Shown: in pieces, positions 3,123-25,105 of the stretch
Layout: each line of letters begins with the position of its first letter
How positions within the stretch are numbered: position 1 is the stretch's first letter
Source of the DNA: an uncultured Anaerolineales bacterium
GTDB taxonomy: Bacteria > Chloroflexota > Anaerolineae > B4-G1 > SLSP01
Assembly (NCBI GenBank): GCA_964501335.1
Contig: CAZCTC010000010.1
Coordinates: forward strand, 128,001-160,759
Direction of reading: 5' to 3'
DNA length: 32,759 nucleotides
Program-made: the position numbers and the translations under genes
The notes under the pieces: model-generated
The model's database searches: none
What the model was told of the DNA's origin: nothing
Seen by the model: only the letters and a program-made list of their open reading frames with translations

Positions 3123-3136
3123 TCAGTTGTGATTGT

Positions 3137-3800: not shown

Positions 3801-4880
3801 TTAATTTTGGATTTAAAGCTGGTGCTTTTTATCGTGTTGGTGATCCTATCCGGGGCTGCCCTGGCGGCCTGGGAGTTTTATCGTTCACGGCAGCGCTATG
3901 GGTTGGGCACCACGCTGGAATCGGCGCCCTTTGGGGTGGTTTTGTTGGATGAGCAGCAAATCACTTATGCCAACGGGTATGCCCGGCGGGCGGCCGGCTT
4001 TGCCGCGGTGGGAAGATTGCCCGAGGCGCCCTGGCTGGAATTGCTGGCCGCGGATCGGGCGGCAGCCCGGAGTGATGCTACGGGAGCGGGGCGCTATCGT
4101 AGTGTGGCTTTCCCGGGTGGGGGGGCGGTGCGGTGGTGGGTTACGTCGGTCGGGTTGCGGGATCTGCTGGTGTTGTTGGATGCGACCGTCCATCCCGACG
4201 GCGAAGAGGCGGCGCGCTATTTGTTGAACGATCTGGCGCATGAATTGCGAACGCCGATGGCGACGATTCTGACGCATGCGGAAATTCTGGCGCTCCCTGA
4301 TATTGCCCCTGAAGTGCAACAGCAATCCCAACAGTTATTGAAAGAAGAGACCCGGCGGATGGCGCGGTTGGTGAACGATATGCTCGAACTGGGGCGTCTG
4401 GAGACGGGGGCTGAGATTGCGCTCCGGCCGGTGGATTTGATGGCGCTGGCCGAGGGGGCGGTGCGGCAGATTCAACCGCAGGCCGAGGCGCGGGCCATGA
4501 CGGTGACGCTGGAGGCCGGGGCGGAATTGCCGTTGGTGTTGGGGGATGAGGATCGACTGCGGCAGGTGTTGCTCAATTTGCTGGATAACGCTTTGAAGTA
4601 TTCCCGATCGGGGGACCGGGTCACGGTGGAATTGCAGGCGCGGGCCGGAGGGCTTTATTGTGCCGTGCGCGACAGCGGTCCCGGGATCGCGGCCCGCCAT
4701 TTGCCGCATCTGACGCGCCGTTTTTATCGGGCGGCGCCCCGGGGCATTGAGGGGAGCGGGCTGGGGCTTTCGCTGGCGGCAGAGATTTTGCGGCGGCACG
4801 GCAGCCGGTTGGAGATCGAGAGCCGGGTCGAGCCGCCCAGCGGCACCTCCGTTTCCTTTGAATTGCAAACTGAACAATGA
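3798..4880 (+). CDS. Sensor histidine kinase (single N-terminal TM, PAS-like region, HisKA, HATPase_c). An alternative GTG start at 3759 is in frame.
   Basis: H-box LAHELRTPMATI. N box LLNLLDNALKYS. G boxes DSGPGIA and GSGLGLSLAAEI. Hydrophobic N-terminus MLILDLKLVLFIVLVIL. Confidence 0.85.
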   Translation: MLILDLKLVLFIVLVILSGAALAAWEFYRSRQRYGLGTTLESAPFGVVLLDEQQITYANGYARRAAGFAAVGRLPEAPWLELLAADRAAARSDATGAGRYRSVAFPGGGAVRWWVTSVGLRDLLVLLDATVHPDGEEAARYLLNDLAHELRTPMATILTHAEILALPDIAPEVQQQSQQLLKEETRRMARLVNDMLELGRLETGAEIALRPVDLMALAEGAVRQIQPQAEARAMTVTLEAGAELPLVLGDEDRLRQVLLNLLDNALKYSRSGDRVTVELQARAGGLYCAVRDSGPGIAARHLPHLTRRFYRAAPRGIEGSGLGLSLAAEILRRHGSRLEIESRVEPPSGTSVSFELQTEQ

Positions 4881-6653: not shown

Positions 6654-6671
6654 AATTTTACGAGGTGAAGG

Positions 6672-7298
6672 ATGCAGGAGAAAATTCGGGTATTGCTGGC
6701 AGATGATCATCCGGCACTGCGGATGGGCTTGCGGGTGCTGTTGGATCGCGATGCCCGGATCACGGTGGTGGGAGAGGCGGAGAGTGGGGATGAGGCGTTG
6801 GCTCAGATCGAGGCGCTGCTGCCGGATGTGGCGGTTCTCGATTGCCAGTTGCCGGGGCTTGAAGGGGCGGCGGTGGCGGCGGAATTGAAGCGGCGGGGCC
6901 TTCCCTCTCGAATTCTGGCTCTGAGTGCCTATGACGACGATCGTTACCTGCAACAGATGTGGGAGGCGGGGGCGGTCGGTTATTTGCTTAAAAACGAGGC
7001 GCCGGGGGAGATTGTGGCGGCGGTTGTGGCTACCATGCAGGGCAAGGTGCTCTGGTCGACGGAGCAGCTGGCGCGGGCCCGGCGTTGGAACGACGATGTG
7101 GGGCGGCTGCGACGCAGTCTGACCGATCGGGAGACCGAGGTGTTGCAGCGGATGGCGGAGGGGTTGAGCAACAAAGAGATTGCGACGGCGCTTTCGGTGA
7201 CGGAACGGACGGTGGAATTCCATGTGGGGAATGTGCTGCGCAAATTGGGGGTGATTTCTCGGGTCGAGGCGGCTATCTGGGCCCGGGAACATTTGTAA
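6672..7298 (+). CDS. Two-component response regulator, NarL/FixJ (LuxR-type HTH) family
   Basis: REC domain (LLADDHPALRMGLRVLL, phospho-acceptor region VAVLDCQLPGLEG). C-terminal LuxR HTH (LTDRETEVLQRMAEGLSNKEIA...TVEFHVGNVLRKLG). Confidence 0.9.
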   Translation: MQEKIRVLLADDHPALRMGLRVLLDRDARITVVGEAESGDEALAQIEALLPDVAVLDCQLPGLEGAAVAAELKRRGLPSRILALSAYDDDRYLQQMWEAGAVGYLLKNEAPGEIVAAVVATMQGKVLWSTEQLARARRWNDDVGRLRRSLTDRETEVLQRMAEGLSNKEIATALSVTERTVEFHVGNVLRKLGVISRVEAAIWAREHL

Positions 7299-10196: not shown

Positions 10197-10325
10197 CAGT
10201 GGCGGCACCCCGAAAAAAGGTGAAATACCCCGAGGTTTTTTTGCATCCTCTGGATTTGGATTATACTTAAGCTGTTTCCTCTCTGATTGATGTTCCATAT
10301 TTCATTTTGCCTAAGGAGATGCAGG

Positions 10326-12236
10326 ATGGCTCGTCATTTCAAGATTGAATCGCTGCTTTCTGCCCGGCTTTTTCTGAGTCCTCAACTGGTTGATAATCGG
10401 ATTTATTTTATGAGTAACCTTTCGGGCCGTATCGGCCTTTATGCAATGGACAAAGGGGGGAGTGTGCCGGAACCTTTGTTACCTCTGGATATTGCCTTGC
10501 AAAACCCCGTTTTAGTCCATGAAAGCGATTTTTTCTTCGTTTTTCCTAAGCTTGGGAAGATCATGGTGATGATCGATAAGGACGGCGATGAGAATTATCA
10601 GCCCTGTTGGATTCCGCTGTTGGGTGGGATTCCGGAGCCGGTGTTTGGAGACCGGTTTGTCGGTCAACAGGTTTTTGTGACGGAGGCAGATCTCGAGCAT
10701 AATCGCGTTATGTTGCTGGTGGACCATCGGACCGCGCCCATTTATGAGAGTTTTGTGGCCGATCTGGAAAAAGGGACATTGGTCAGTTTGGGGGCCAGCC
10801 CGTACGGCAATGCCTGCCTTGCCGCCGACAAGGATTACCGGCAGTTTATCCTGGCGGACGGTTATATGGGGGGAGATAATGTCCTTTATTATCGCGGGGT
10901 GGAAGATACGGAGCGCCGGTTGATTTACGGTATGCCGTTGGAGGAACGCTCTGCGGGCGTTGAGGTGGTCCGTACTGCTTTTAAAGCCGGGCATCTGCTC
11001 GAGGATGGCAGCGGCGTTTTGGTGATTACCAGCCGGTTCGACGATCAACTCAGCCTGGGATATCTACCCATGGATCGGACCCAGACGGTAGAGCCGGTGA
11101 AAGTGATGGGAACGGTCCATCGCGGCAGCGGCGAGATGGATAACCTGATCTATCTGGAGGGGCTGCGCTATCTGGTGATTTTCAATATCGACGGTTGTTC
11201 TTACGCCTACGAAGGGGCTTTTGATCCAGCCGCGCTTGTTTTCCATGTGGATCGGGTCATTTGCGGGGTGGGCGAATTGCACGACGGCGTTTTGCAACAT
11301 GTGAGCTATGAGAAGGCCAGCGGCGCTTATGCGCTGGCTTTCTGTTCGGCTACGATGCCGGTGCAGCTCTATATTTTGGAGCGGGATGGGACGCTGGCGG
11401 TCCAGACGCGTGAGCGGATGGTGGGAATTCCGATGGATTTGCTGGCGCCCGGCGAGGATGCTTCGTTTATCAGCCACGATGGGCTGCGGATTTCGGCTCG
11501 ACTCTATCTGCCGGCACCGATTTTGGGCTTTGAGGGGCGGCGGCCGGTGGTCTTTTACGTTCATGGAGGGCCGCAGGGGCAGGAGCGCCCGGATTCCACC
11601 TGGTTCTCGATGCCGTTGATTCAGTTCCTGACGCTGCGGGGTTTTGCCGTTTTTGTGCCCAATGTCCGCGGTAGCTCCGGGTATGGGCTGAATTATATGC
11701 GGCAGGTGGATCGCGATTGGGGGGGGAAAGATCGGTTGGACCATGTGGCGGCCTGGCATCACTTGCATGAGGATCCCCGGCTGGATCTGGAGCGGGCGGC
11801 GATTGTGGGCCGATCTTACGGCGGCTATATGACGTTGACCCAGGTCGGGCGACATCCGGAATTGTGGAAAGCCGGTTGTGATATGTTTGGGCCTTATAAT
11901 CTGGCGACCTTTATCGAAAGGTTGCCGGAAACCTGGAAGACGCATTTCTATCTTACGGTAGGAAACCCGGAGACCGAGGCGGCGGAGCTGGAGAAGCGTT
12001 CTCCGAGCAGCTATCTGGATCAACTGGCCTGTCCGTTGCTGGTGATTCAGGGAGCGAACGATCCGCGGGTGCGCCTGGCCGAGTCTGAGGATCTGGTCAA
12101 GCGGTTGCAGGCTCAGGGCAAGCAGGTGGAGCTGCTGATTTTTGAGAATGAGGGCCACGATGTGATCAAGTTTGAAAACAAAGTGCGCTGTTATAACGCC
12201 ATTGTCGATTTCTTCGCCCGGATTTTGCAACCTTAG
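10326..12236 (+). CDS. S9 family serine peptidase (prolyl oligopeptidase, dipeptidyl aminopeptidase or acylaminoacyl-peptidase-like): N-terminal beta-propeller plus C-terminal alpha/beta hydrolase
   Basis: Strong SD aaggag 10313-10318 before ATG 10326 (the ORF track's upstream TTG at 10287 lacks an SD). Nucleophile motif VGRSYGGYM. HGGP motif FYVHGGPQG. Catalytic Asp in GANDPRV and His in EGHD. Confidence 0.9.
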   Translation: MARHFKIESLLSARLFLSPQLVDNRIYFMSNLSGRIGLYAMDKGGSVPEPLLPLDIALQNPVLVHESDFFFVFPKLGKIMVMIDKDGDENYQPCWIPLLGGIPEPVFGDRFVGQQVFVTEADLEHNRVMLLVDHRTAPIYESFVADLEKGTLVSLGASPYGNACLAADKDYRQFILADGYMGGDNVLYYRGVEDTERRLIYGMPLEERSAGVEVVRTAFKAGHLLEDGSGVLVITSRFDDQLSLGYLPMDRTQTVEPVKVMGTVHRGSGEMDNLIYLEGLRYLVIFNIDGCSYAYEGAFDPAALVFHVDRVICGVGELHDGVLQHVSYEKASGAYALAFCSATMPVQLYILERDGTLAVQTRERMVGIPMDLLAPGEDASFISHDGLRISARLYLPAPILGFEGRRPVVFYVHGGPQGQERPDSTWFSMPLIQFLTLRGFAVFVPNVRGSSGYGLNYMRQVDRDWGGKDRLDHVAAWHHLHEDPRLDLERAAIVGRSYGGYMTLTQVGRHPELWKAGCDMFGPYNLATFIERLPETWKTHFYLTVGNPETEAAELEKRSPSSYLDQLACPLLVIQGANDPRVRLAESEDLVKRLQAQGKQVELLIFENEGHDVIKFENKVRCYNAIVDFFARILQP

Positions 12237-12253: not shown

Positions 12254-13594
12254 ATGAGGCGAAGTACCGCTGGAATCGATTTGGAGTTTGACGTTCCCAG
12301 GATTTTTGCCATGTTGCGGCGCCGGCGAAAAGAACGTCCTGTCCGGCGCCGCGCCTGTCTGGAACTGGAACGAAATGTCGGCGGTCCGCTCTGGCAACTG
12401 GTGGTGCTGGGGTTGATCACCAGTGCTTTGTTAAAGGAGCCCTTTTTCTTAGGGCTCACTTTTTGTATGGCGGCTTTTTTGGGGGTTGCCTGGCTGTGGG
12501 ACCATTTCAGCCTGACGGGGGTGCGTTATCGGCGTAAATTTAGTGAGGTGCGCGCTTTTCAGGGGGAAACGGTTATCTTGACTCTGGAAGTGGGCAATCA
12601 AAAGTGGTTGCCGGTGAGCTGGCTGGAGGTGGGCGACATTTTCCCCGGAGAACTGCCGGTGGCCGGCGAACGGGTGATCATCTCTTCATCGACCAATCAG
12701 GTCGAATTCACCACGTTCTGGCATCCGGCCGCTTATCAGAGTTTGACCCGGGTGATGGAAGTGCCCTGTATGCAGCGGGGGTATCATTTTTACGGGCCGG
12801 CAACGGTCCGTACCGGCGACGGCTTCGGCTTTTTCAGTCGGAAGTTGACTTTGCCGGAGCGGGATTTGCTGATCGTCTATCCCCGGCTCTATTCGGCGAC
12901 GGAACTCGATCTGCCTTCGAAGAATCCGTTTGGGGAGCGGCGGACGCTGTTCAAACTTTTTGAGGACCCGTTGCGTCCGGCGGGCATTCGCGACTGGCAG
13001 TTCGGCGATGGGATGCGGCGGGTGCACTGGAAGGCGACCGCGCGTTACGAGCGGTTGCTCAGCCGGATTTACGAGCCGAGCGAGGAGCCGCAGGTGATGA
13101 TTTTGTTGAATGTCTCCACGTTGCCGCGTTATTGGGAGGGGATTGTTCGAGAGTTGTTCGAGCGCACGGTCAGTGTGGCGGGCAGTCTGGCCGCGTTGGC
13201 CATCGAGGAGCGGTTGTCGGTCGGGCTGGCGGCCAATGCTTACTGGCCGGGGAGCGATCAGCGATTGGAGCTCTTCCCGGGGCGGCGGCAGGAGCAGTTG
13301 TTGCATATTTTGGAGTTGCTGGCGGCCGTGACGCCTTATGCCAGTGAATCTTTTGAATCTGTGTTGTTGCAGGTGGCTCCCCGATTGCCCTGGGGAGCCA
13401 CTTTGCTGGTCGTTTCGGCGGTTGCGACCCCCGAATTGTGGGAAACGCTGGTCGATCTGGATCGAGCCGGGCGACAGGTCACGCTCTTCACCCTGGTTGA
13501 GACGCCGCCCGAATTCCCGCCGATCGGCATTCCGGTTTATCATCTACCGCAGTTGATCGACGATCTGGTTATTCCTCAAAAGGTAGCGGAGTAG
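12254..13594 (+). CDS. DUF58 domain protein (vWA-like; usual partner of MoxR ATPases)
   Basis: N-terminal TM. DUF58 signature region IRDWQFGDGMRRVHWKATARYERLLSRIYEPSEEPQVMILLNVS (D-x-R-x-x-x-W-K-A-x-A-R...L-x-x-x-E, then a run of hydrophobics). Confidence 0.8.
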   Translation: MRRSTAGIDLEFDVPRIFAMLRRRRKERPVRRRACLELERNVGGPLWQLVVLGLITSALLKEPFFLGLTFCMAAFLGVAWLWDHFSLTGVRYRRKFSEVRAFQGETVILTLEVGNQKWLPVSWLEVGDIFPGELPVAGERVIISSSTNQVEFTTFWHPAAYQSLTRVMEVPCMQRGYHFYGPATVRTGDGFGFFSRKLTLPERDLLIVYPRLYSATELDLPSKNPFGERRTLFKLFEDPLRPAGIRDWQFGDGMRRVHWKATARYERLLSRIYEPSEEPQVMILLNVSTLPRYWEGIVRELFERTVSVAGSLAALAIEERLSVGLAANAYWPGSDQRLELFPGRRQEQLLHILELLAAVTPYASESFESVLLQVAPRLPWGATLLVVSAVATPELWETLVDLDRAGRQVTLFTLVETPPEFPPIGIPVYHLPQLIDDLVIPQKVAE

Positions 13595-13596
13595 GT

Positions 13597-15063
13597 ATGC
13601 AGCGCGGTGGTTTGTTTCTGGATTTACGGCGCAATTTACTTTATCTGTGCCTGGTAGGAATCGATTCCGCCTGGTTTGCTCTGCTGCTGCCTTTGTTGGG
13701 GGTGCAGTCGACCTTATCCTGGTCGCCGTTGATCTTGTGGGGTATGTTGGCGGTGGGGATGTGCGGCTGTCTGGTGGTGCTGGAGCTTTTCAATCGGATC
13801 GGTTTGGGGAGGCCCTGGTATCCGCTGGCCGTGGCGGCTCTGGTCCTCTTGACGATTGTGGGGCTGATGCGGGTGGTGATTTACAACGGCTGGCCCTTTT
13901 GGAGTTGGGGCTGGGGGGAGCAGATCCTGCTCAGCTTTTTGCTGTTTGAAACCTGGCCGCGGCCGGAGCTGGCGCTGGCTGCGACCGGCTTTTTTGTCTG
14001 GCAGCGGGCTACCTGGGCGACGCGTCGATCGCTGGATTGGCGTGATGTCAGCAGCAATTTCTGGTTGGGCCTCTTCTTTTTGGGCTGCGGCGGGCTCTTT
14101 TGGGAGTTGTGGTTGAAGCAGCCGGCGCCGTTGGCGTTTGTCTGGGGCTATTTTGGATTGGGGATGGTGGCGTTGGCGTTGACGCGGGCCCATACGGCGC
14201 CGTTGCTGGTGCGGAGCATGGGGGCAGAGCTTTCGCCGGTGCGGCTGGCTCAACTGGGGATGACGGTGGGCCTGACCTTGCTGATCGGCGGGTTGAGCTG
14301 GTGGGGGCTTTCACAGCCTTTAATAGGGTTTGTGGCCTGGCTGGGGCCGTTGTGGAACTTTCTCTTTGTGTTGGTGGAAGTGTTGGTGGTATTGTTGATT
14401 TTTGTCGGCTGGCGGTTCTGGCAGTTTATTTCGGAGCTGTTGAAGGGGGAGCTGCTGCCGGCCTTGCAAAATCTGGAGGATATCTCTCGCTCGATTCAGC
14501 AGCTGGGAGAACAATTGGCCCAGCAGGCCGGATTGAATTTTGTCTGGCCTCCCTGGCTCGGGCTGGTTTTGCGTATTGGTGTGGCATTGTTGATTTTGTT
14601 GCCGGGTTTGTGGCTGGTGCTGGTCTATTTGGGGATCATTCAGCCGCCGCGGCGCCGGGAGGACGACGAGTATGCGAATCGATTGTCGGCGGAGCGGTTG
14701 TTGTGGGATGGATTGGATTCGCTGCGCGATCTGGGCCGGTTGATGCGCCGGTATGGGTTCAGCCGGCAGATGCTGGCGGCGATTTCGGTGCAGAATCTCT
14801 ATGCCAATGTGTGTCGTTTGGGGCGGCGGCAGGGGCGGCCGCGGCGGCCGTCGCAGCCCCCGGATGCTTATTTGCCGCAGCTGGTGGCGGCTTTTGAGGG
14901 GCTGGATAGTCAGTTGTCCCGGATCACGGAGGCCTATATGCAGGTGCATTACGGGGATCGGTCGGTTACGAATGAGGAACTGGCCCGGCTGCGGAAGGAT
15001 TATGCGGAGGTGCGGGCGCAGGCGGGGCGGAAGCGGCGCCTGGACGTGAAACGTAAAACGTAA
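13597..15063 (+). CDS. Polytopic membrane protein with a C-terminal DUF4129-like domain (the third usual member of MoxR/DUF58 operons)
   Basis: About 10 hydrophobic helices. C-terminal region GRRQGRPRRPSQPPDAYLPQLVAAFEGLDSQLSRITEAYMQVHYGDRSVTNEELARLRKDY matches the DUF4129 pattern (R..G.P...S.TP.EY......L.......Y...RYG). Confidence 0.7.
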   Translation: MQRGGLFLDLRRNLLYLCLVGIDSAWFALLLPLLGVQSTLSWSPLILWGMLAVGMCGCLVVLELFNRIGLGRPWYPLAVAALVLLTIVGLMRVVIYNGWPFWSWGWGEQILLSFLLFETWPRPELALAATGFFVWQRATWATRRSLDWRDVSSNFWLGLFFLGCGGLFWELWLKQPAPLAFVWGYFGLGMVALALTRAHTAPLLVRSMGAELSPVRLAQLGMTVGLTLLIGGLSWWGLSQPLIGFVAWLGPLWNFLFVLVEVLVVLLIFVGWRFWQFISELLKGELLPALQNLEDISRSIQQLGEQLAQQAGLNFVWPPWLGLVLRIGVALLILLPGLWLVLVYLGIIQPPRRREDDEYANRLSAERLLWDGLDSLRDLGRLMRRYGFSRQMLAAISVQNLYANVCRLGRRQGRPRRPSQPPDAYLPQLVAAFEGLDSQLSRITEAYMQVHYGDRSVTNEELARLRKDYAEVRAQAGRKRRLDVKRKT

Positions 15064-15369: not shown

Positions 15370-16308
15370 ATGGAGTTCTCAGAGCTGGCGAAAGCGATTA
15401 AACAGAATGTCGGCCGGGTGATCATCGGCAAGGCGGATGTGGTTGAGATGTTGTTGATTGCCCTGTTGACTGAGGGACATGTGCTGTTGGAGGATGTTCC
15501 AGGGATCGGCAAAACGACGCTGGCCAAGGCTTTGGCACGGAGTCTGGATGCTTCTTTTGCGCGCATCCAGTTCACGCCGGATCTGCTGCCGGGCGATGTC
15601 ACAGGGTTGAGCATTTACAATCAGAAAGAGCGGGAGTTTGAGTTTCACGCCGGGCCGGTTTTCCGTCAACTGCTGTTGGCCGATGAAATCAACCGGGCGA
15701 CGCCGCGGACCCAATCCAGCCTGCTGGAGGCCATGCAGGAGCAGCAGGTGACGGTGGACGGCAAGACCTATGCGTTGCCGCGGCCCTTTCTGGTCATTGC
15801 GACGCAGAATCCGATTGAGCTGGAGGGGACCTTTCCCTTGCCGGAGGCGCAGCTGGACCGCTTTTTGATGCAGGTGCGGTTGGGGTATCCCAGCGAAGCT
15901 GAGGAAGAGGAAATTCTCTTGCAATACGAGCGTCAGGATCCGCTGGTGGAGCTGCGGCCGGTGGTAACGATGGCCGAGATTCAGGAATTGCAGCGAAAAG
16001 TGCGGGAGATCCATGTCAATGGGGATGTGCGGCGGTATATCGTGCAGGTGGTGCGGACGACGCGGGAACATGAGGCGGTGGCGCTGGGCGGTTCGCCGCG
16101 GGGGACGCTGGCGCTCTATCGGTCAAGCCAGGCGCTGGCGGCGTTGCGGGGACGGGATTATGTCACGCCGGGCGATGTGCAGCAGCTCTGTCCGGCGATT
16201 TTAACGCATCGCGTGCATATTCGGCCGCAGGTGCGGTTACGAGGGCGTACGCCGGCGCAAGTAGTGGCGGAAATCATTGAAGCGGTGCCGGTACCGGTAG
16301 TTGAATAA
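15370..16308 (+). CDS. MoxR-family AAA+ ATPase
   Basis: SD aaggagg 15357-15363. Walker A GHVLLEDVPGIGKTTLAKALA. Walker B LLADEINRA. Characteristic MoxR length (312 aa) and C-terminal region (YVTPGDVQQL). Confidence 0.95.
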   Translation: MEFSELAKAIKQNVGRVIIGKADVVEMLLIALLTEGHVLLEDVPGIGKTTLAKALARSLDASFARIQFTPDLLPGDVTGLSIYNQKEREFEFHAGPVFRQLLLADEINRATPRTQSSLLEAMQEQQVTVDGKTYALPRPFLVIATQNPIELEGTFPLPEAQLDRFLMQVRLGYPSEAEEEEILLQYERQDPLVELRPVVTMAEIQELQRKVREIHVNGDVRRYIVQVVRTTREHEAVALGGSPRGTLALYRSSQALAALRGRDYVTPGDVQQLCPAILTHRVHIRPQVRLRGRTPAQVVAEIIEAVPVPVVE

Positions 16309-16312
16309 GGCT

Positions 16313-18343
16313 ATGATGGAGATTTCGGGTTATAAAATTCGCGTGAAAATAGCGCGGCTGGCCTTAAGCGGGCAATTTATCTGCCTTACTGGAATCCTGG
16401 TCATTTATTTTGGGCTGGCGTTGGGCTATAGAATTGCGGGGCCTTTTAATCGCCCTGTATGGATGAATTTGTATTTATTGCTGGCGCTGGATATCTGTTC
16501 TTTTATTTCCGTTTTCTGGTTGAGAAGATCGTTGACTCAGGCGGTGTGGGGGTATGCCTGGAGCAATCTCATTTATGTGGTTTTGATGCTGGGCTATCGG
16601 CTGCTCGATTTCAACTCTCCGAAAATCGATCCTCCTTATATTATCTTTTTATTGCATTTGAATATCTTTTCGTTGGGGATTATATTTGGTTTTCGTCCGG
16701 CGTTTAAATATGCCCTGGCGACCGTCGTCGTATTTTTAGTGGTGGGAATTTTCTATACCGAACGGCTGTCGATTGTGGTGGGAATTTTGTTTGCTTTGCT
16801 TATGACCTTTCCTCCTTTGGGGATCGATAAGTTAATGGCGGAGTTGCGGCAAAGCCAGGAAAAATTAAGTATCATTTTTCGAGAATCTCCGGATGTGATT
16901 TTAGTGTTGGATCCGGCGACAGGGAGAATTTGGGAGGGGAATGCCGCTGTCAAATGGGTGTTAGGTTACGTGGAAGAAGAGCTGCGTGGGGAACCTTTCA
17001 GTAAATTGTATGAATCGGATTCGCCGTTGGGAAAGGAGAAACTCTGGTATGTGGAGGCTCAGCGGCGGGATACCCACGGTTCCCAGTTCTTTTTGAAAGC
17101 CGATGGAACGCGCTGTCCGATGGATTGGACGGCGGCGCGCATTCCCTGGGATGAGGATTCGGCGATCCTGATTACGTTACGGGATGTGACGGAACGTTAT
17201 CAGGCGGAGGTGGAGCGAGCTCGTTTTACGGCCCAGTTGGGGGCCGCGGCCGAACTGGCGGCCCGGATCAATGCTTATCTGGATGCCGATCAGTTGTTGC
17301 CGATGGTGGTGGCTCAGGTGCAATCCCGCCTGGATGTGGCCCGGGCGGCGATCTATTTGTTGAATGAGGATTTGCAGGCGGCGCTTTCTCCTGCTGTTAA
17401 AGAGAGTGTGAGCCTGGGGGCATTGATGGCCTCGTCCAGCGTTATTGCCCGGGTGGTTCAGAACCGGGAGATGGTCAGGATTGACGATCTTCAGGAGTTG
17501 TCGTCAGAAGATCTTCCGTTTTTGCAGGCGGGGATGCAGACTCAACTGGTCGTTCCTTTGATTGTGCAGGATTGTCTGTTGGGCGTGATGGATCTTCAGG
17601 ATCTGCGGCCGGGGCGTTTTCATACCATCGATCTGGATGTCTTTTTCACGCTGGGGGTTCAGATCGCGACATCGCTTGAGAATGCGCGGCTCTTTGGGGA
17701 ATTGCAGAAGACGGCCCGTAATTTGCAGGGCCTTTCGCATCGTCTGGTGGCGGTGCAGGAGCAGGAGCGGCGGAACATTGCCTGTGAACTGCACGATGAG
17801 ATCGGGCAGATGTTGACGGCATTGAAGTTAATGCTGGATATGAGCAGCGGCGCCGGGGATTCGCAACAGGAGGCGCGGGATATGGTGCGCGATCTGTTGG
17901 AGCGGGTGCGCAACCTTTCGTTGGAGTTGCGGCCGCCGATGCTGGACGATTTAGGGATTTTGCCGGCGCTGGTCTGGCTTTTCAACCGTTATACCACGCA
18001 GACCCATATCAAAGTGAGTTTTCGCCATTCCGGGTTGGAGCGGCGTTTTACCCCGCAGATTGAGACGGCGGCCTATCGAGTGATCCAGGAATCGTTGACC
18101 AATGTCGCCCGCCATGCTCGTGTGCAAGAGGTCGAGGTGCGGTTGTGGGCGGATGAGGCGCAATTGCAGGTGCAGGTGGAAGATAACGGTCAGGGATTTG
18201 ATCTGGACGAAGTGCTGAGCCAGGCGGGTTCCAATGGATTATCGGGGATGCGGGAACGGGTTATGTTGTTGGGCGGAGAACTGACGATCGATTCCCGGCC
18301 GGGGGCGGGGACTTCGCTGGTGGCGGAGTTGCCCTTGCAATGA
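16313..18343 (+). CDS. Sensor histidine kinase, NarL-partner type (polytopic membrane domain - PAS - GAF - HisKA_3 - HATPase_c). A TTG at 16301 overlapping the moxR stop is an alternative start.
   Basis: HisKA_3 H-box CELHDEIGQMLTALK. HATPase N/G boxes (LTNVARHA, DNGQGFD, GLSGMRERVMLLGG). GAF block before LENARLFGELQ. AT-richer N-terminal membrane domain with a PVWMNLYLL motif. Confidence 0.9.
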   Translation: MMEISGYKIRVKIARLALSGQFICLTGILVIYFGLALGYRIAGPFNRPVWMNLYLLLALDICSFISVFWLRRSLTQAVWGYAWSNLIYVVLMLGYRLLDFNSPKIDPPYIIFLLHLNIFSLGIIFGFRPAFKYALATVVVFLVVGIFYTERLSIVVGILFALLMTFPPLGIDKLMAELRQSQEKLSIIFRESPDVILVLDPATGRIWEGNAAVKWVLGYVEEELRGEPFSKLYESDSPLGKEKLWYVEAQRRDTHGSQFFLKADGTRCPMDWTAARIPWDEDSAILITLRDVTERYQAEVERARFTAQLGAAAELAARINAYLDADQLLPMVVAQVQSRLDVARAAIYLLNEDLQAALSPAVKESVSLGALMASSSVIARVVQNREMVRIDDLQELSSEDLPFLQAGMQTQLVVPLIVQDCLLGVMDLQDLRPGRFHTIDLDVFFTLGVQIATSLENARLFGELQKTARNLQGLSHRLVAVQEQERRNIACELHDEIGQMLTALKLMLDMSSGAGDSQQEARDMVRDLLERVRNLSLELRPPMLDDLGILPALVWLFNRYTTQTHIKVSFRHSGLERRFTPQIETAAYRVIQESLTNVARHARVQEVEVRLWADEAQLQVQVEDNGQGFDLDEVLSQAGSNGLSGMRERVMLLGGELTIDSRPGAGTSLVAELPLQ

Positions 18344-20409
18344 AGACATCTAAGGAAAGCTATTTAGAAATCGATTATTCTGAACAGCTTGCCCGGGAGA
18401 AGATTGCCAGGGTGATTTTGCTTAGCAATGTTATTGCCCTTGGAGCCCTTTTTATTTTCAATCTGGTTAGATTAATCTTAATGTTAACGGAAGAGCCGGG
18501 GTATCAACCCGCCTGGTATTCATTCTTTAGTATGGCGGCGTTGGTGGGGGGCGGGATTGTTGCGTTGGGTTGGATCAGGAGATCGCTTTTTGCGGGAATG
18601 GTGTTTTACGCCTGGTTTGCATTGTTTTGTGTCCTGGTAATGATTGTGGGAGCCTTTATATGGGGAGGTCTGCAACGTTACCCTTTAATAGTGTTAGTTT
18701 TTTATATAGGGATTTTATCTCTCAGTGTTATTGTAGGATATAAGACAGCTTTACCTTATGCAATTGTTGTGTCTTTGGTAATGGTGGTCTGTGGGGTAAT
18801 TTTTAATGATGTGCTTTTTTCAGTACCTTTGGTCGTTACCTCTTATTTAATGGTTTTGCCAGCCTTATTCATTGATTATATGACCGATAGTATAAGACAG
18901 AGTGAACAACGGTTTAAAATCCTTTTTCAGGAATCGCCGGATTTGATTGTGGTCGTTGAACGAGAAACGGGGATTGTGTTACATGTCAATTCGGCGTTGG
19001 AACGTTTTACAGGGTATTTTCCTGAAATGTTGATAGGCAAATCCTTTTTTGATGTTTTTCCTCAAGAAGTGTTTCCTGACTTAACTGAAATTTCAGAGGG
19101 TCAACCCCGAGCCGAATTTCGTGCTGTTGCAGATCGAGCTTTTTATCGGTTGGATGGGACTCTTATTTTTATGGATTTGAGTATAGCTTCAATAGTTTGG
19201 ATGAAGAGATCTGCTTTGTTGGTGGTTTTAAGAGACGTTACTGGGCGCCATCGCGCAGAGGAAGACCGTCAACATTTTACGAAACAATTGCGAGTGGCCG
19301 CAGAGTTGACTGGCCAGATTAATACCTGTCTGAACTCTGAAGCCTTAACTTTCATGATAGAAAATCAAATGGAGCAACTTTTGAATTTGAGTCGGGTGAG
19401 AATTTTTCTCTTTGATGAAAAAAGTCAAACCCTTGTTCGATATGCAGGTGGCTCGGAAATTGTGAAATCTTATCATTTGCAGGATCCCTACCTAGTGGCA
19501 CAAGCTGCCCATGATCTCATTCTGGTTCAGGCCCTTAAAGAATCAAAGATGGATGATGGGAGGAGATTGGATTCTGAGGGGGATATGGGAGGGCAGGTAG
19601 CAGTACCTTTGGTTTCACATGGAAAACTTTTGGGAGTGTTAGACATTCAAGATATCAGTCCAAATCGATTTCATCCCGGTGATCTGGATATTTTCTATAC
19701 TTTGGCAGGGCAAATTGCTGTAGCTTTGGAAAATGCTCGTTTATTTGGAGACTTGCAGAAGACGGCGATGCATTTACAGGGGCTTTCTTTGCGGTTGCTT
19801 GAGGTTCAGGAGCAGGAACGTCGGAATATTGCGTGTGAGTTGCATGATGAGATGGGCCAAATGTTAACTGCTATCAAGTTGCTTTTGGAAATGAAGAAGT
19901 CCAAATTGGGGAGGGCGGCAGATAATTCGGATCAGGAAATTGGGGATCTTGTGTCGGATTTGTTGAATCGAATTCGGAATCTCTCTTTGCAATTGCGACC
20001 GCCGATGCTCGATGATCTGGGGATTTTACCAACTTTAGTATGGTTGTTTAATCGTTATAGCCATCAAACTCAGATAAAGGTTAATTTTAAGCATGTGGGA
20101 TTGGAACGCCGTTTTTCTTCTCAGGTAGAGACAGTTATCTATCGTGTAATTCAAGAATCTTTAACTAATGTAGCACGTTACGCTATGGTGGATAATGTCG
20201 ACGTTTATATCTGGGGGGATGAATCAATTTTACGGTTACAGGTCGACGATAATGGAGTCGGGTTTGATTTGGATAAGGTTTCAGGTCAATTGAGCTCTAA
20301 CGGCCTTTCTGGCATGCAGGAACGGGTTACTTTACTGGGGGGACAATTCTTGATAGATTCTAAACCAAATTTTGGAACCCATTTGATGGCGGAAATTCCC
20401 CTGCAATAA
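18340..20409 (+). CDS. Sensor histidine kinase, tandem paralog of 16313-18343 (membrane domain - PAS - GAF - HisKA_3 - HATPase_c), distinctly AT-richer than its neighbour
   Basis: ATGA start/stop overlap with the upstream kinase. H-box CELHDEMGQMLTAIK. ENARLFGDLQKTAMHLQGL is nearly identical to the paralog. Membrane-domain motif EPGYQPAWYSFFS. Confidence 0.9.
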   Translation: MKTSKESYLEIDYSEQLAREKIARVILLSNVIALGALFIFNLVRLILMLTEEPGYQPAWYSFFSMAALVGGGIVALGWIRRSLFAGMVFYAWFALFCVLVMIVGAFIWGGLQRYPLIVLVFYIGILSLSVIVGYKTALPYAIVVSLVMVVCGVIFNDVLFSVPLVVTSYLMVLPALFIDYMTDSIRQSEQRFKILFQESPDLIVVVERETGIVLHVNSALERFTGYFPEMLIGKSFFDVFPQEVFPDLTEISEGQPRAEFRAVADRAFYRLDGTLIFMDLSIASIVWMKRSALLVVLRDVTGRHRAEEDRQHFTKQLRVAAELTGQINTCLNSEALTFMIENQMEQLLNLSRVRIFLFDEKSQTLVRYAGGSEIVKSYHLQDPYLVAQAAHDLILVQALKESKMDDGRRLDSEGDMGGQVAVPLVSHGKLLGVLDIQDISPNRFHPGDLDIFYTLAGQIAVALENARLFGDLQKTAMHLQGLSLRLLEVQEQERRNIACELHDEMGQMLTAIKLLLEMKKSKLGRAADNSDQEIGDLVSDLLNRIRNLSLQLRPPMLDDLGILPTLVWLFNRYSHQTQIKVNFKHVGLERRFSSQVETVIYRVIQESLTNVARYAMVDNVDVYIWGDESILRLQVDDNGVGFDLDKVSGQLSSNGLSGMQERVTLLGGQFLIDSKPNFGTHLMAEIPLQ

Positions 20410-20575
20410 ATTTTTTATATTACCCCCTGGTTTTTTTGAGACTGTTTTTTTGTTTTTCTGGTTTTTAAGAGGAAAATGCTATAATGTTTGTATCGCTCCC
20501 TGGGGCGTTTCTATCCTGTATGCTCCCAGCCAGGGATGGCGGCATCACCACAACCTGTTTCCAAGGAGGCCAGTT

Positions 20576-20875
20576 ATGGCACACGCAGCGATTAGTTGGA
20601 TTTCGGGAAGGGTTTTTCTTTTTAAAGATTTTGTGGGGATGGTCGAGAAAAACGTTCAGGAAAACGGATGGGATGGTTTTTTCAAGGAACAGGGCGAAGT
20701 GTTTATGAAGGAATTCGGCAAAGCGCCCGATTGGACAGAGGATGAACGGAAAGTTTTTGCCACCGCTTTTGAGAACGGTAGTTTGCGGAAAGTGGTGGAT
20801 CTGTGGTGGGGCAGCTATGTGGAGGCCCGGGAAGCGGGGCTTTTAAAGTCGGCCGCAGAATATTGGGAATTTTAA
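20576..20875 (+). CDS. Small hypothetical protein X1 (99 aa) carrying one copy of an unrecognised ~85-aa domain (motif F-x-A/T-A-F-x-N-x-x-L-R-x-V-V-x-x-W-W-x-x-Y-x-E)
   Basis: SD aaggagg 20563-20569, 6 nt before ATG 20576. Paralogous to both halves of 21104-21661 (VFATAFENGSLRKVVDLWWGSYVEAREAG vs VTFVACFKNLRLREVVVQWWHAYDEGRKKG and ATFTAAFYNSHLRDVVENWWFVYEEE). Confidence 0.55.
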   Translation: MAHAAISWISGRVFLFKDFVGMVEKNVQENGWDGFFKEQGEVFMKEFGKAPDWTEDERKVFATAFENGSLRKVVDLWWGSYVEAREAGLLKSAAEYWEF

Positions 20876-20904
20876 CTCTTAACTTTATTTTTCAGAAGCG
20901 AGGG

Positions 20905-20942
20905 AAGCCCTTCTCGATAGTCTTATCGAGAAGGGCTTTTTG
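20905..20942 (+). terminator. Rho-independent terminator: 15-bp stem AAGCCCTTCTCGATA-gtct-TATCGAGAAGGGCTT followed by TTTTG
   Basis: Perfect inverted repeat plus a 3' T-run, 30 bp after the stop of 20576-20875. Confidence 0.7.
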
Positions 20943-20987
20943 TTGGTAGGGGGAATGGTTAGCATGTTCAAACATTTATGAGCTTGT

Positions 20988-21016
20988 TTGATTTTTTCTC
21001 GAAAACGGCATACAAT
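20988..21016 (+). promoter_or_regulatory. Sigma70-like promoter candidate TTGATT-17 bp-TACAAT upstream of 21104-21661
   Basis: -35 TTGATT 20988-20993, 17-nt spacer, -10 TACAAT 21011-21016, about 90 nt upstream of ATG 21104, in an AT-rich gap. Confidence 0.45.
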
Positions 21017-21103
21017 GGTATTGGTATGCCCTGGCATATTTCATTTTGCTTGGCCAACTTCCAGGGAAGGGGCGAAGCTGTTGTTAAAGTAAGGAGAAGT
21101 GTC

Positions 21104-21661
21104 ATGATAAATCAAATAAAAACTTTACCCCTTGAAGATTATGAAATACATGTGGTTGGGTATCACGATATTTTACGTCTTACGGGATTGATCTTTTTGG
21201 AGCGAGGTTTTGTTGCAAGGGTAGATGCCCGCGGGATCGATGCTGTTCTCGCTGAAATGGGCTCTGTCGATCTGGATGTTGAACAGGCGGTTACCTTTGT
21301 CGCCTGTTTCAAGAATCTTCGCTTGCGTGAAGTTGTGGTGCAGTGGTGGCATGCCTATGATGAGGGGCGGAAAAAGGGTGAGATCCCTCAGGCGGAACCT
21401 TATTGGACTCCTAATAGACCCACCGGTTATCAGGATATTGTACGGCTTTCGGGGTTGGTTTTCTTTCAACAGAATTTTATAGCCAGGGTGGATGCGCTGG
21501 GGCTGGATGCGATGATTGCGATGGAAGCCGTTTATGGTGATTTAACAGCTTTACAACGTGCTACTTTTACGGCAGCTTTCTATAATTCTCATCTGCGGGA
21601 TGTGGTAGAGAACTGGTGGTTTGTTTATGAAGAGGAACGGTCTTTGAACCATATTCCTTAA
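21104..21661 (+). CDS. Hypothetical protein X2 (185 aa) made of two tandem copies of the same ~85-aa WW-motif domain found in 20576-20875
   Basis: SD aaggag 21091-21096 before ATG 21104. The internal halves align with each other (YHDILRLTGLIFLERGFVARVDARGIDAVL vs YQDIVRLSGLVFFQQNFIARVDALGLDAMI; ...VVVQWWHAYDEG vs ...VVENWWFVYEEE). Confidence 0.55.
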   Translation: MINQIKTLPLEDYEIHVVGYHDILRLTGLIFLERGFVARVDARGIDAVLAEMGSVDLDVEQAVTFVACFKNLRLREVVVQWWHAYDEGRKKGEIPQAEPYWTPNRPTGYQDIVRLSGLVFFQQNFIARVDALGLDAMIAMEAVYGDLTALQRATFTAAFYNSHLRDVVENWWFVYEEERSLNHIP

Positions 21662-21754
21662 ACCTGAATAGTTTTGGCTAATGCTTAGCAATGATCGAAG
21701 CCAGGTGATGTTGGCTGTTTTGATTGATCGAGATTCAATTTCGAACTTCGAGAG

Positions 21755-21797
21755 TGTTCCGGGATTTTGAGCCCGGAACATTCTTATTTTTGTTTTT
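21755..21797 (+). terminator. Rho-independent terminator: stem TGTTCCGGG-attttgag-CCCGGAACA followed by TTCTTATTTTTGTTTTTG
   Basis: 9-bp GC stem plus a long T-rich tail, about 95 bp downstream of the 21661 stop. Confidence 0.65.
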
Positions 21798-21853
21798 GAT
21801 TTTAATGGGTCAGGTATAATTAGGAGAAAAATGGGCCCTGGAAGATTTCGCAT

Positions 21854-23659
21854 TTGTTGGTTGTAAGGGAAAGGAGTCCAGTGAGTGATCGTTTGCAATC
21901 TTCTTCATCTGTTCGTTATAAAACAGCTCGTTTAATTTTATGGTTTAATGCTTTCTTTTTGACTGGGGCGACTGTTCTGAGCCTTGGGTTGTTTATATTA
22001 AAAAGATTCTATCAACCCGGTTATGAACCTGCCTGGATTAATTTTTTTAGCACAATTGCGTTATTTGTTTCTGTATGGGTTTCTTTATATCGGATCCGGT
22101 ATTCTCTTTTTCAAGGTTTTTATTTATATGGCTGGTTGGGGTTGATTTGTATTACTATAGTGCTTTTTTATAATGTTTTTGTAGAGCATGAGGTTGAAAT
22201 TCCTTTTATTGTTTTTGCGTTGCATATTGGGATTTTTGCTGCCGGATTGATCCTGGGATTAAGATATGCGTTGATTTATGCCACCGTAGTCAGTGTTATT
22301 GTGACCATAGTGGGATTTTATTGTAAGAATACAGGATTTGCGGTTGCTGCGGTCGGTCTGGCCTACGGCATGACCCTCCCTTCCTGGCTGGTGGATCAGC
22401 TGGAGCGCGATCTGCGGAAAAGCGAAGAGAAATTTATTACGATCTTCCGGGATGCGTTGGATGTGATTCTGGTGGTGGATCTCGATACCCGGGTGATTCT
22501 CAAGGTGAACCGGGCGGTCGAGACGGTGTTGGGGTATGAATCCGAGGTGTTGTTGGGCCAGCCGGTTTCGATTTTATGGTTGCCGGAGGGGGAGCTTTCC
22601 AGTTACCATTTCTGGGAAGATTTGCGCACCAGGAAGGCAATTTTTGAATCGACTTCGTTCCGGCGGGCTGACGGGCTGCTCTGTCCGGTGGATTTGACGG
22701 CGACGGTGATCCCCTGGGAAGATCACAATGCGGCGCTGGTGACGCTGCGCGATGTGACGGAGCGCTATTATGTGGAGGAGCAACTGCGCCGCCATCAAGA
22801 ACAACTGGAACAGCAGGTGCAGGATCGTACGGGGGAGTTGCAGACGGCCAACGATCAGTTGCGGATCGAGGTTTTGGAACGGCAACGAGCCGAAGAGACG
22901 TTGCGGGATCAGGCTGTGGAGCTGGAGGCCCGGAATGTGGAGCTGGATGCGTTTGCCCATACGGTGGCCCACGATCTGAAAAATCCCCTGACTAATTTGA
23001 TCGGCTTCAGCAATCTGCTGGAACGACGTCTGGAACGCCTTTCGCCCGACAAAATAGCTTCGTATGTGCAGATGATCGGTCAAAACGGCCGCAAGATGAA
23101 CAACATCATTAATGAGTTGTTGTTGCTGGCCAGTGTGCGCAAGATTGAAGAGGTGGAGCGCGATGTGCTGGATATGGCCACCATTGTGCATGAGGCGCAG
23201 GATCGCCTGCGGGATATGCTGGCCGAATCTCAGGCGGTGGTGACGGTGCCCGAGCAATGGCCGCCGGCTTTCGGTTACGGGCCCTGGGTGGAAGAAGTAT
23301 GGGCCAACTATATCAGCAACGCGATCAAGTATGGCGGAGTGCCGCCGCGGGTGGAGTTGGGCGCTGAGCGGCTGGTGGATGGGCGGGTGCGCTTTTGGGT
23401 GCGCGATAACGGCAAGGGATTGACCCTTGAGGAACGGGCTCAGCTTTTCACGCTTTTTACCCGGCTGGATAAGGTCCGGGCCCGGGGGCATGGTTTAGGC
23501 CTTTCGATTGTGCGGCGGATTGTGGAGAAATTGGGCGGTGAGGTCGGTGTGGAGAGCGAAGTAGGGCAGGGAAGCTGTTTTTCCTTTATTTTACCGGCGG
23601 CTGCGGTATCTATGGCGGTGCAGCCCACGTCGACCCCGTTGCTGGGCCGGCAGGATTGA
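21854..23659 (+). CDS. Sensor histidine kinase (membrane domain homologous to those of the two preceding kinases - PAS - coiled-coil - HisKA - HATPase_c). The GTG at 21881 after SD aaggag (21871-21876) is the more likely start.
   Basis: Membrane motif QPGYEPAWINFFS. H-box VAHDLKNPLTNL. N/G boxes (YISNAIKYG, DNGKGL, GHGLGLSIVRRIVEKLGG). Nucleotide composition switches from AT-rich to GC-rich at about 22380, just after the last TM helix. Confidence 0.85.
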   Translation: MLVVRERSPVSDRLQSSSSVRYKTARLILWFNAFFLTGATVLSLGLFILKRFYQPGYEPAWINFFSTIALFVSVWVSLYRIRYSLFQGFYLYGWLGLICITIVLFYNVFVEHEVEIPFIVFALHIGIFAAGLILGLRYALIYATVVSVIVTIVGFYCKNTGFAVAAVGLAYGMTLPSWLVDQLERDLRKSEEKFITIFRDALDVILVVDLDTRVILKVNRAVETVLGYESEVLLGQPVSILWLPEGELSSYHFWEDLRTRKAIFESTSFRRADGLLCPVDLTATVIPWEDHNAALVTLRDVTERYYVEEQLRRHQEQLEQQVQDRTGELQTANDQLRIEVLERQRAEETLRDQAVELEARNVELDAFAHTVAHDLKNPLTNLIGFSNLLERRLERLSPDKIASYVQMIGQNGRKMNNIINELLLLASVRKIEEVERDVLDMATIVHEAQDRLRDMLAESQAVVTVPEQWPPAFGYGPWVEEVWANYISNAIKYGGVPPRVELGAERLVDGRVRFWVRDNGKGLTLEERAQLFTLFTRLDKVRARGHGLGLSIVRRIVEKLGGEVGVESEVGQGSCFSFILPAAAVSMAVQPTSTPLLGRQD

Positions 23660-23669
23660 GGTTTTACCG

Positions 23670-24377
23670 ATGGAGGTGATCTGGGCCGGGTTGATTGAAG
23701 GCTTGCGCTTGTTTTTTACCGGTGATCCGGCTTTGTGGACCGTGATCGGACGCTCGGCTCAGGTGAGCGGGGTGGCGTTGCTGGTGAGCAGTTTGTTGGG
23801 CGTTCCCGCCGGCGCGGTGTTGGGGCTGACCCGTTTTCCTGGTCGGCGTCTGGTGCAGGCTCTGGTTTATACCGGAATGGGGCTGCCGCCGGTAGTGGTT
23901 GGGCTGGCGGTCTATCTGTTGCTTTCGCGCAACGGCATCCTCGGGCCGTTGCATTGGTCCTGGGTCCCCGAACTTTTTACCCCTGAGGCGATGATTTGGG
24001 CTCAGGTGGTGATTGCCGTGCCGATGGTGGTGGGCTTCACGATGGCGGCGGTGGCCGGGGTGGATCCTGAACTGGGGCGGCAACTGGCCGCTCTGGGGGC
24101 GACGCGGTTGCAGGTGGGCCTGGCGGTGCTGCGCGAGGCGCGTTTGGGGGTGCTGATCTCGATCATCGCCGGGTTGGGGAGCATTATTTCCGAGGTTGGG
24201 GCGGTGATGATGGTGGGCGGCAATATTGAGGGCTATACGCGGGTTTTGACTACCGCTATTATGCTGGAGACCCGGCAGGGCAATTTCGATCTGGCGATTG
24301 GATTGGGGCTGGTTCTGTTGGGCCTTTCGTTTGTGATCAATCTGGCGATGACTTTGTTGCAGGGAAAGGGACGTTGA
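23670..24377 (+). CDS. ABC transporter permease (TupB/ModB/CysTW-like small-anion importer family; substrate not determinable)
   Basis: 235 aa, 5-6 TM. EAA-like loop LAALGATRLQVGLAVLREARLGVLISIIAGLG. Its stop overlaps the ATPase start (TGATG). Confidence 0.8.
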   Translation: MEVIWAGLIEGLRLFFTGDPALWTVIGRSAQVSGVALLVSSLLGVPAGAVLGLTRFPGRRLVQALVYTGMGLPPVVVGLAVYLLLSRNGILGPLHWSWVPELFTPEAMIWAQVVIAVPMVVGFTMAAVAGVDPELGRQLAALGATRLQVGLAVLREARLGVLISIIAGLGSIISEVGAVMMVGGNIEGYTRVLTTAIMLETRQGNFDLAIGLGLVLLGLSFVINLAMTLLQGKGR

Positions 24378-25105
24378 TGACGGCATCGATTTACAGGTTG
24401 GAAGGGGTGCGCCGGCTTTATCAGGGGCGGCCCGTGGTGGATATCGCGCAGCTGGATGTGGAACCGGGAGAGATTCTGGCGATTGTGGGGCCAAGCGGGG
24501 CGGGAAAATCGACGTTGTTGCGGCTGCTCAATTTTTTGGAGTTTCCTGACAGCGGTACGCTTCATTATCGCGGGCACTCTGTGACGCATGAGTCGGTGAC
24601 GCTGGCGCTGCGTCGTGAAGTGACGACAGTCTTTCAACGGCCGGCGTTGCTTTCAATGAGCGTGATGGAGAATGTGACTTACGGGTTGCATCTGCGCGGC
24701 GAGCGCGGGGGGCGGGCCCGGGTGGAGACGGTGCTGGAGCGGATGGGGCTGGCGGCCTTGAGCAAGGCGCCGGCGCGGACGCTTTCCGGCGGTGAGGCGC
24801 AGCGGGTAGCTCTGGCCCGCGCGTTGGTGATCCGGCCGGCGGTGATGTTGCTGGATGAACCTACGGCGAATCTGGATCCTTACAATGTGGGGTTGATCGA
24901 ATCGGTGGTGGCCGGGATGAATCAGGAAGAAGGCACGACGATGGTGCTGGTGACCCATAACATTTTTCAGGCCCGCCGATTGGCCCGGCGCGTTGTTTTT
25001 TTGCTTAACGGGCAGGTTGTTGAGGTCGCTCCGAGCCGGGCCTTTTTTGAAATGCCCGTCGATCCGCGAACGGCGGCTTTTGTGCGCGGCGAGATGGTTT
25101 GTTAG
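24377..25105 (+). CDS. ABC transporter ATP-binding protein
   Basis: Walker A GPSGAGKST. Signature LSGGEAQR. Walker B MLLDEPTANLD. H-loop VLVTHN. Confidence 0.9.
   Translation: MTASIYRLEGVRRLYQGRPVVDIAQLDVEPGEILAIVGPSGAGKSTLLRLLNFLEFPDSGTLHYRGHSVTHESVTLALRREVTTVFQRPALLSMSVMENVTYGLHLRGERGGRARVETVLERMGLAALSKAPARTLSGGEAQRVALARALVIRPAVMLLDEPTANLDPYNVGLIESVVAGMNQEEGTTMVLVTHNIFQARRLARRVVFLLNGQVVEVAPSRAFFEMPVDPRTAAFVRGEMVC

Follow-up and report, generated by a model that had tools for sequence, protein, structure and literature searches.

The DNA analysed here, called the window, is a stretch of 32,759 nucleotides (nt) from an uncultured Anaerolineales bacterium (assembly GCA_964501335.1, contig CAZCTC010000010.1, positions 128,001 to 160,759), and our subject is a group of five plus-strand genes within it. 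Three encode histidine kinases, HK1 (16316..18343), HK2 (18340..20409) and HK3 (21881..23659), each of which begins with a six-transmembrane (6TM) domain of ~185 residues (encoded at 16313-16867, 18349-18915 and 21884-22435, respectively). Pfam bears out the fusions described in an earlier note on this DNA, with the 6TM domain joined to PAS-GAF-HisKA_3-HATPase_c in HK1 and HK2 and to PAS-coiled coil-HisKA-HATPase_c in HK3. Between HK2 and HK3 lie two small open reading frames (ORFs), hypA (20576..20875), which encodes an acidic, soluble protein of 99 residues with one copy of a ~87-residue partner domain, and hypB (21104..21661), whose product of 185 residues holds two tandem copies of the same domain (21149-21412 and 21416-21658). 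The earlier note treated the interval as three kinases only and so overlooked these two genes, which prove to be a conserved genetic partner of the 6TM domain.

An identical stretch is present on contig Ga0248168_1000393 of JGI metagenome 3300022666 and on a Logan contig. The JGI gene calls give lengths of 675, 689 and 592 residues for HK1, HK2 and HK3, and 99 and 185 residues for the small proteins; read together with the ribosome-binding sites (RBS), they place the likely true starts at ATG 16313/16316 for HK1, ATG 18340 for HK2 and GTG 21881 for HK3. Each small gene is preceded by an RBS and a -10-like element (for hypA, AAGGAGG and the extended -10-like TGCTATAAT) and followed by a strong hairpin with a U-run. 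Both hairpins resemble intrinsic terminators on the plus strand, one after hypA (20904..20944; -28.9 kcal/mol, z = -5.7 by folding) and one with a 14-bp stem in the 220 nt between hypB and HK3 (21750..21795; -23.8 kcal/mol, z = -6.0 by folding). A pattern scan of the window for sigma-70 promoters and terminators found sites no more numerous than in shuffled sequence, and the hairpins reported here are only the two confirmed by folding.

The kinase cores are conventional. HK1 and HK2 match HisKA_3 (E=7e-10 and 1.9e-11) and HATPase_c (E=2e-14 and 8e-9) in Pfam, carry the H-box ...ACELHDE(I/M)GQ... and show partial NCBIfam matches to MctS, UhpB and LiaS. HK3 matches HisKA (E=1.2e-12) and HATPase_c (E=6e-23) in Pfam, with the H-box FAHTVAHDLKNPL. 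Identity between HK1 and HK2 is 70% in the DHp/CA core, in contrast to 40% in the GAF domain, 35% in the PAS domain and 28% in the 6TM domain. This difference between core and input domains suggests a shared regulator and diverged inputs, so that, on sequence grounds, one regulator is probably common to both kinases.

The shared six-helix domain

The earlier note held the three N-termini to be homologous and polytopic, and both statements stand. The N-termini align almost without gaps at 28-36% identity, with pairwise E-values of 1e-17, 3e-27 and 3e-26 (composition-adjusted BLASTP) that lie far beyond chance, showing at the sequence level that the domains are homologous and the kinases paralogous. 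Hydropathy gives six hydrophobic spans in each. Basic residues mark the N-terminus, the loops that follow TM2 and TM4, and the segment behind TM6, and the TM3-TM4 loop is acidic, a distribution that fits a predicted topology with cytoplasmic termini and loops no longer than ~11 residues. Loops this short leave no room for an extracytoplasmic ligand-binding domain in the 6TM kinases. TM6 continues as a cytoplasmic helix with the motif LPSWLVDxLExDLxxSEEKF, leading into the PAS or PAS-GAF region and the kinase core.

The domain matches no named sensor family, as the earlier note had supposed, and the families considered include the MASE families, MHYT, 5TMR-LYT, 7TMR-DISM_7TM, 7TM-7TMR_HD, HisKA_7TM, DUF4118 and PhoR. 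When scanned alone, the N-termini of HK1, HK2 and HK3 have no significant match in Pfam (searched to E<=10, no value better than 0.23) and no relevant one in NCBIfam (E<=1), and 40 family members scanned singly against Pfam (E<=1) give no significant or consistent match, no Pfam family being touched by more than two of them. Membership of DUF4118 was considered and rejected: it is touched by only two of the 40 members, with a best E of 0.0019 that falls far short of threshold. The Pfam library does hold models of comparable domains, for MASE11 and HisKA_7TM both matched genes neighbouring 6TM loci. A profile of the family also found no match among PDB sequences.

An exhaustive HMMER search of 1.84 billion representative proteins with a three-sequence profile recovered 42 proteins at E<=1e-3 and 30 at E<=1e-10. 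A word-indexed protein search with the three N-termini had returned no match among 8000 candidates and missed even their own protein; given the 42 relatives found exhaustively, we attribute this to the limits of such an index for hydrophobic sequence. The relatives fall into two groups, N-termini of signalling proteins and stand-alone proteins of 165-235 residues. In ten diverse members, Pfam identifies fusions to coiled coil-HisKA-HATPase, GAF/PAS-HisKA, multi-PAS-GAF-HisKA_2/HWE, GAF-SpoIIE and SpoIIE alone, and in none of the ten does the 6TM part match a Pfam model. Together with the HisKA_3 kinases of the window, the domain is thus found with four types of output and with no output at all, and therefore behaves as a modular input or anchor domain. 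All relatives that carry a name come from Anaerolineae/Chloroflexota, as do all eight relatives (metagenome-assembled genomes, MAGs) found in a scan of GTDB species representatives with a seven-sequence alignment as query; the source genome is not among these representatives. The sequence searches show that the domain is an undescribed, Anaerolineae-restricted family.

An alignment of 40 sequences (residues numbered as in HK3) has a single position conserved at 90% or more, G135. It lies in the TM4-TM5 motif H-x-G-I-F-x-L-G-L-x-L-G-F-(R/K)-x-A-x-x-Y-A, and there are minor motifs before TM1 (A-R), after TM2 ((R/K)-S-L), at TM3 (Y-A-W) and at the end of TM6 (L-P-S-W-L-V). Conserved positions, which include R21, A25, R26, S84 and G135, are modestly enriched on the cytoplasmic side (27/108 versus 12/85).

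AlphaFold2 run on the same alignment predicts a six-helix bundle (pLDDT 92.8, pTM 0.83), in which a long N-terminal helix runs into TM1, five further transmembrane helices follow and a C-terminal helix continues TM6 (helices at residues 10-53, 61-80, 85-109, 119-134, 136-157, 160-172 and 175-192). Structure matches to the model, each given with its entry and two match values, include adenylyl cyclase 9 (6r3q; 13.5, 170), the Pseudomonas aeruginosa diguanylate cyclase ImcA (8wcn; 12.4, 173), AC5 (8sl3; 11.3, 171) and Mycobacterium tuberculosis Rv1625c (7yzi; 10.8, 133). Foldseek ranks ImcA, Rv1625c and AC8 (8buz) at the top, without significance (best E 0.29, best TM-score 0.57). Sequence identity to the cyclase bundles is 6-11%, and profile search detected no sequence homology to the adenylyl cyclase or ImcA bundles. 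We therefore read the bundles of class III adenylyl cyclases and ImcA as the nearest known architecture to the predicted model, in the sense of a resemblance in fold and not of homology.

The prediction shares with these bundles six transmembrane helices with cytoplasmic ends, short loops and a TM6 that extends as a helix. Unlike them, the domain described here drives kinases and phosphatases rather than cyclases. In ImcA, the best-matching bacterial structure, activity depends on the 6TM domain, which makes up the dimer interface and through which the protein contacts its partner IsmP (PMC10904736). IsmP is itself a membrane protein, in contrast to the small and soluble partner found here. 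For the cyclases, it has been argued that the 6TM anchors act as receptors, and these anchors can be exchanged with the 6TM quorum sensor CqsS (PMC4821796, PMC11606603); the likeness of our domain to receptor kinases of the CqsS/LqsS type is drawn from the literature only (PMC4821796).

In its position, the domain recalls the MASE families, MHYT, 5TMR-LYT, 7TMR-DISM_7TM, HisKA_7TM and DUF4118, which are likewise N-terminal polytopic modules with short loops placed before varied outputs. Its association with HisKA, HisKA_3 and HWE kinases and with a PP2C phosphatase is accordingly the classical signature of an input domain. It differs from MASE-type domains in having no sequence match to them, in being restricted to Anaerolineae and in being encoded with a small soluble protein; to our knowledge, a dedicated protein of this kind is not a described feature of those families.

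A small protein encoded with the 6TM domain

The products of hypA and hypB are homologous (BLASTP E=2e-11), hypB being a tandem duplication of the single domain of hypA, and neither has a Pfam or NCBIfam match. The family comprises 87 clusters in a collection of 5.8 billion proteins, and all clusters with a source name are labelled 'hypothetical protein' from Anaerolineae or Anaerolineales. Its members have ~87 residues, are acidic (median pI 5.1) and share the invariant residues G13, F21, W66-W67, Y70 and R74 and the near-invariant motif C-P-Y-G-D-L-T. AlphaFold2 predicts a compact five-helix domain (pLDDT 95.2). A faint precomputed match to DUF7979 (PF25934), a family mentioned in the literature only in a haloarchaeal paper, is attached to five of the 87 clusters; it was not reproduced by hmmscan at E<=10, and we rejected it.

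To describe the linkage between this family and the 6TM domain, we use about 40 related loci (L numbers) with enough flanking DNA, reached by three routes. In all of them, the gene immediately before the 6TM gene, in the same orientation, encodes a member of the small-protein family, irrespective of the output domain. Starting from the 6TM domain, a small-protein homologue is found upstream in all seven GTDB loci with upstream DNA (L003, L004, L006-L010), before both stand-alone 6TM proteins L011 and L012, and before the 6TM-SpoIIE phosphatase of L024 (hmmsearch E=1e-35). The reverse route, from the small-protein clusters, finds a 6TM gene just downstream in 4/4 loci, and L021 contains two tandem units of the pair. 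When metagenomes were scanned with the small protein as seed, 27 loci came back at query identities of 52-100%, and wherever downstream DNA is available (26/26) a 6TM gene follows on the same strand after 4-190 nt. The contigs of L013 and L023 end just upstream of the 6TM gene and are therefore uninformative on the partner. As the pairing also holds for 6TM proteins that stand alone or are joined to a phosphatase, it is the 6TM domain, and not the kinase, that the linkage follows.

The fused two-repeat form recurs at L004 (3282-3860), L019 (6846-7424) and L049 (2885-3421) as well as in the window (21104-21661), each time with a single-repeat gene or the kinase a few hundred bases downstream. 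The copy numbers of partner domain and 6TM domain need therefore not match.

Some of the loci extend beyond the pair. A third gene, seemingly rich in coiled coil and alike by eye in the two cases, follows the stand-alone 6TM gene in L011 (928-1266) and L013 (551-1009), which suggests a three-gene version of the module on unrelated short contigs. A protein of ~2060 residues follows the small-protein/6TM-kinase pair in L003 (8277-14465), L004 (6937-13119) and L019 (10419-16267); since L004 and L019 look like the same locus, this amounts to two or more different Anaerolineae genomes. The L003 protein carries bacterial alpha-2-macroglobulin domains in Pfam; the ORF of similar size in L019 has precomputed Big_5 matches and no macroglobulin domains, and the L004 protein is likened to them by size only. 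In L018 (3204-8308), from one MAG, the pair adjoins genes with RAMP and weak Cas6 matches; these could be a CRISPR-associated cluster, and the adjacency is probably coincidental.

A proposed two-gene input module

We favour, with moderate confidence that attaches to the explanation as a whole, a model in which the 6TM domain does not act alone and the small protein and the bundle are two halves of one input module. The membrane half would be the 6TM domain, and the other half the acidic five-helix protein of ~87 residues, predicted to be cytoplasmic and represented here by hypA and the two-repeat hypB. Our inference is a direct contact in which the small protein docks on the bundle, probably on the conserved and basic side that faces the cytoplasm, and there would either deliver a cytoplasmic signal or set the on/off state. 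TM6 and the linker helix would then carry the change on to the output, which is a kinase here and a PP2C phosphatase, or nothing, in relatives. Phosphate would then go to regulators encoded elsewhere, for HK1 and HK2 to one of the NarL class and possibly to the regulator at 6672-7298. The basic conserved cytoplasmic residues of the 6TM domain, modest as their enrichment is, and the acidity of the partner fit direct binding.

The earlier note called the 6TM domain a sensor. That label is an assumption, and in the proposed module the sensing part could be the smaller protein. A stronger form of the model, which we put forward tentatively and as somewhat less probable than not, is an obligate two-part receptor of an undescribed class, in which the small cytoplasmic protein docks on the bundle and controls whatever is fused to it. 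The small protein would then be a ligand-binding sensor or else a membrane-held factor released on signal, and such a release would explain why these kinases never have an adjacent regulator.

Several features of the loci weigh against the two-gene module. In the window, neither hypA nor hypB lies directly upstream of HK1 or HK2, and strong terminator-like hairpins part hypA, hypB and HK3, in contrast to the gaps of 4-100 nt in most relatives. With three partner-domain copies and three 6TM kinases in total, the arrangement is looser than the bicistronic pairs elsewhere. L004/L019 has three copies of the small domain with one 6TM gene within reach, and in L003 a single small gene accompanies two 6TM kinases. 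The count of loci also overstates the number of independent lineages, since many of them share similar habitats and some nearly duplicate one another.

Among the alternatives, the 6TM bundle may itself be the receptor for a membrane-borne or hydrophobic ligand such as a lipid, a quinone or an autoinducer-like molecule, with the small protein a mere modulator or unrelated. There is precedent in the 6TM kinase CqsS, a demonstrated receptor, and in the 6TM anchors of class III adenylyl cyclases, for which a receptor role has been proposed. We consider this reading unlikely. For the linkage of the small protein to 6TM proteins that stand alone or are joined to a phosphatase, a direct partnership is a simpler explanation than any of the rivals.

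It is less probable still, and in our view doubtful, that the domain serves only for membrane anchoring and dimerisation, with the PAS and GAF domains reading the signals and the small protein owing its co-transcription to some other role, such as aiding folding or insertion or serving as a pathway target. PAS is present in all three kinases and GAF in two, both being known ligand-binding domains; the most conserved motif is glycine-rich (G126-x4-G131-x3-G135, then YA) in a manner typical of helix packing, and the ImcA 6TM domain forms a dimer interface. Yet the commonest relatives are 6TM-coiled coil-HisKA-HATPase proteins of ~440 residues that lack both PAS and GAF, so that the 6TM module and its partner are their only possible input, and one would hardly expect a mere anchor to persist as a separate gene that keeps its pairing with the small protein.

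A small gene immediately upstream of a kinase with a multi-helix membrane bundle is also the layout of comX-comP, agrD-agrC and comC-comD, where an exported and processed precursor yields the pheromone that the polytopic kinase senses, and ComP is, like HK1 and HK2, of the HisKA_3 type with a NarL-class partner. A pheromone precursor is nevertheless a very improbable role for our small protein, which is confidently predicted as a compact folded domain of 87 residues (pLDDT 95), shows no signal peptide or double-glycine leader when its alignment is read, occurs in two-repeat fusions (hypB, L004) that place the first 'tail' internally, lies beside no conserved peptidase, ABC exporter, modifying enzyme or REC gene in the ~40 loci, and, unlike the precursors of such cassettes, stays paired with 6TM proteins that have a phosphatase or no output in place of a kinase domain.

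In the two-gene model, the response regulator would be encoded elsewhere. The only regulator in the window is an orphan of the NarL/LuxR class (Response_reg and GerE; 6672..7298, plus strand), 9 kb upstream of HK1, and as the earlier note stated, none adjoins the cluster although the window holds five kinases. A same-operon NarL/LuxR-class regulator is usual, not obligatory, for HisKA_3 kinases, and kinases in general are commonly without an adjacent regulator; no gene of this class lies in the apparent operon of HK1 and HK2, and the regulator at 6672-7298 is the only one in the 32.8-kb window. The missing neighbour is not a peculiarity of this locus. An iterated REC search seeded with CheY and the window regulator, covering the window and the flanks of the 6TM loci (+-4 to 10 kb), found no REC domain in those flanks except a regulator pair 6-8 kb away in L021/L022. 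The orphan state is thus a family trait. The two outcomes that the earlier note named as refuting, a match to a named family and an adjoining regulator, were both looked for, and the results favour the note. By its class, the 6672-7298 regulator is a plausible candidate partner of HK1 and HK2. It is preceded, within the stretch 5211-7298, by a non-kinase protein of 480 residues with an N-terminal membrane span, a large domain after it and no Pfam or NCBIfam match; we considered this protein as a hidden kinase and rejected it, as it has no kinase motifs and a non-kinase domain behind the membrane span.

For most of the sensor domains that bacterial kinases carry in the membrane, the signal is not known, and here the genomes themselves point to a partner, turning an opaque transmembrane domain into a testable two-protein system. 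Its components are a bundle of 180 residues that resembles the still-enigmatic 6TM anchors of adenylyl cyclases and an 87-residue protein with a high-confidence fold. What is new is the pair of undescribed, lineage-specific families; the general arrangement, a membrane-embedded input module with an accessory protein, is of a known kind. Should the two interact, they would offer a small, tractable model for the relay of cytoplasmic inputs through a hexahelical membrane domain to varied outputs, and would extend the known signalling domains of Chloroflexota by two families, in a phylum for which we know of almost no experimental signalling biology. Should they not, the result would still be a clean annotation of two lineage-specific families and an orphan kinase cluster.

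Surroundings and base composition

Nearly all long ORFs of the window up to ~25 kb lie on the plus strand, with a strongly positive GC skew. Neither an Rfam nor a tRNA scan of the window gave a match. Upstream of HK1 are genes for an S9 peptidase (10287-12236), a DUF58 protein (12254-13594), a DUF4129 membrane protein (13597-15063) and a MoxR AAA+ ATPase (15370-16308), and HK3 is followed by an ABC permease and ATPase (23670-25105). HK1 starts 4-7 nt past the stop of MoxR (16308) and ends in a stop codon that overlaps the start of HK2; MoxR, HK1 and HK2 therefore look co-transcribed. The DUF58-DUF4129-MoxR cluster thus lies directly upstream of HK1, with two of the kinases seemingly in a MoxR operon; an association of 6TM kinases with MoxR was not seen in the related loci.

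A block of low G+C content at 18600-22400 takes in HK2, hypA, hypB and the first ~450 nt of HK3. HK2 is low throughout (G+C at third codon positions, GC3, 0.40 over the whole gene and 0.30-0.46 beyond the first 300 nt), and the first ~450 nt of HK3 have a GC3 of 0.30-0.32 against ~0.7 in the remainder, the boundary falling at the 6TM/PAS junction. The genes flanking the block range from 0.64 to 0.82. The 6TM-coding part is also lower in GC3 than the kinase remainder in L004 (0.46 versus 0.81), L018, L008 and L021. Module exchange, horizontal transfer and a codon-usage constraint on the membrane part are all possible causes.

The remaining two kinases, also orphans, lie near the start of the window (87-4880): a dCache-HAMP-GAF-PAS-HisKA protein of 1011 residues (87-3122) and a PAS-HisKA protein of 373 residues (3759-4880), with a gene for a small PD-(D/E)XK/Cas4-like nuclease (3137-3664) between them.

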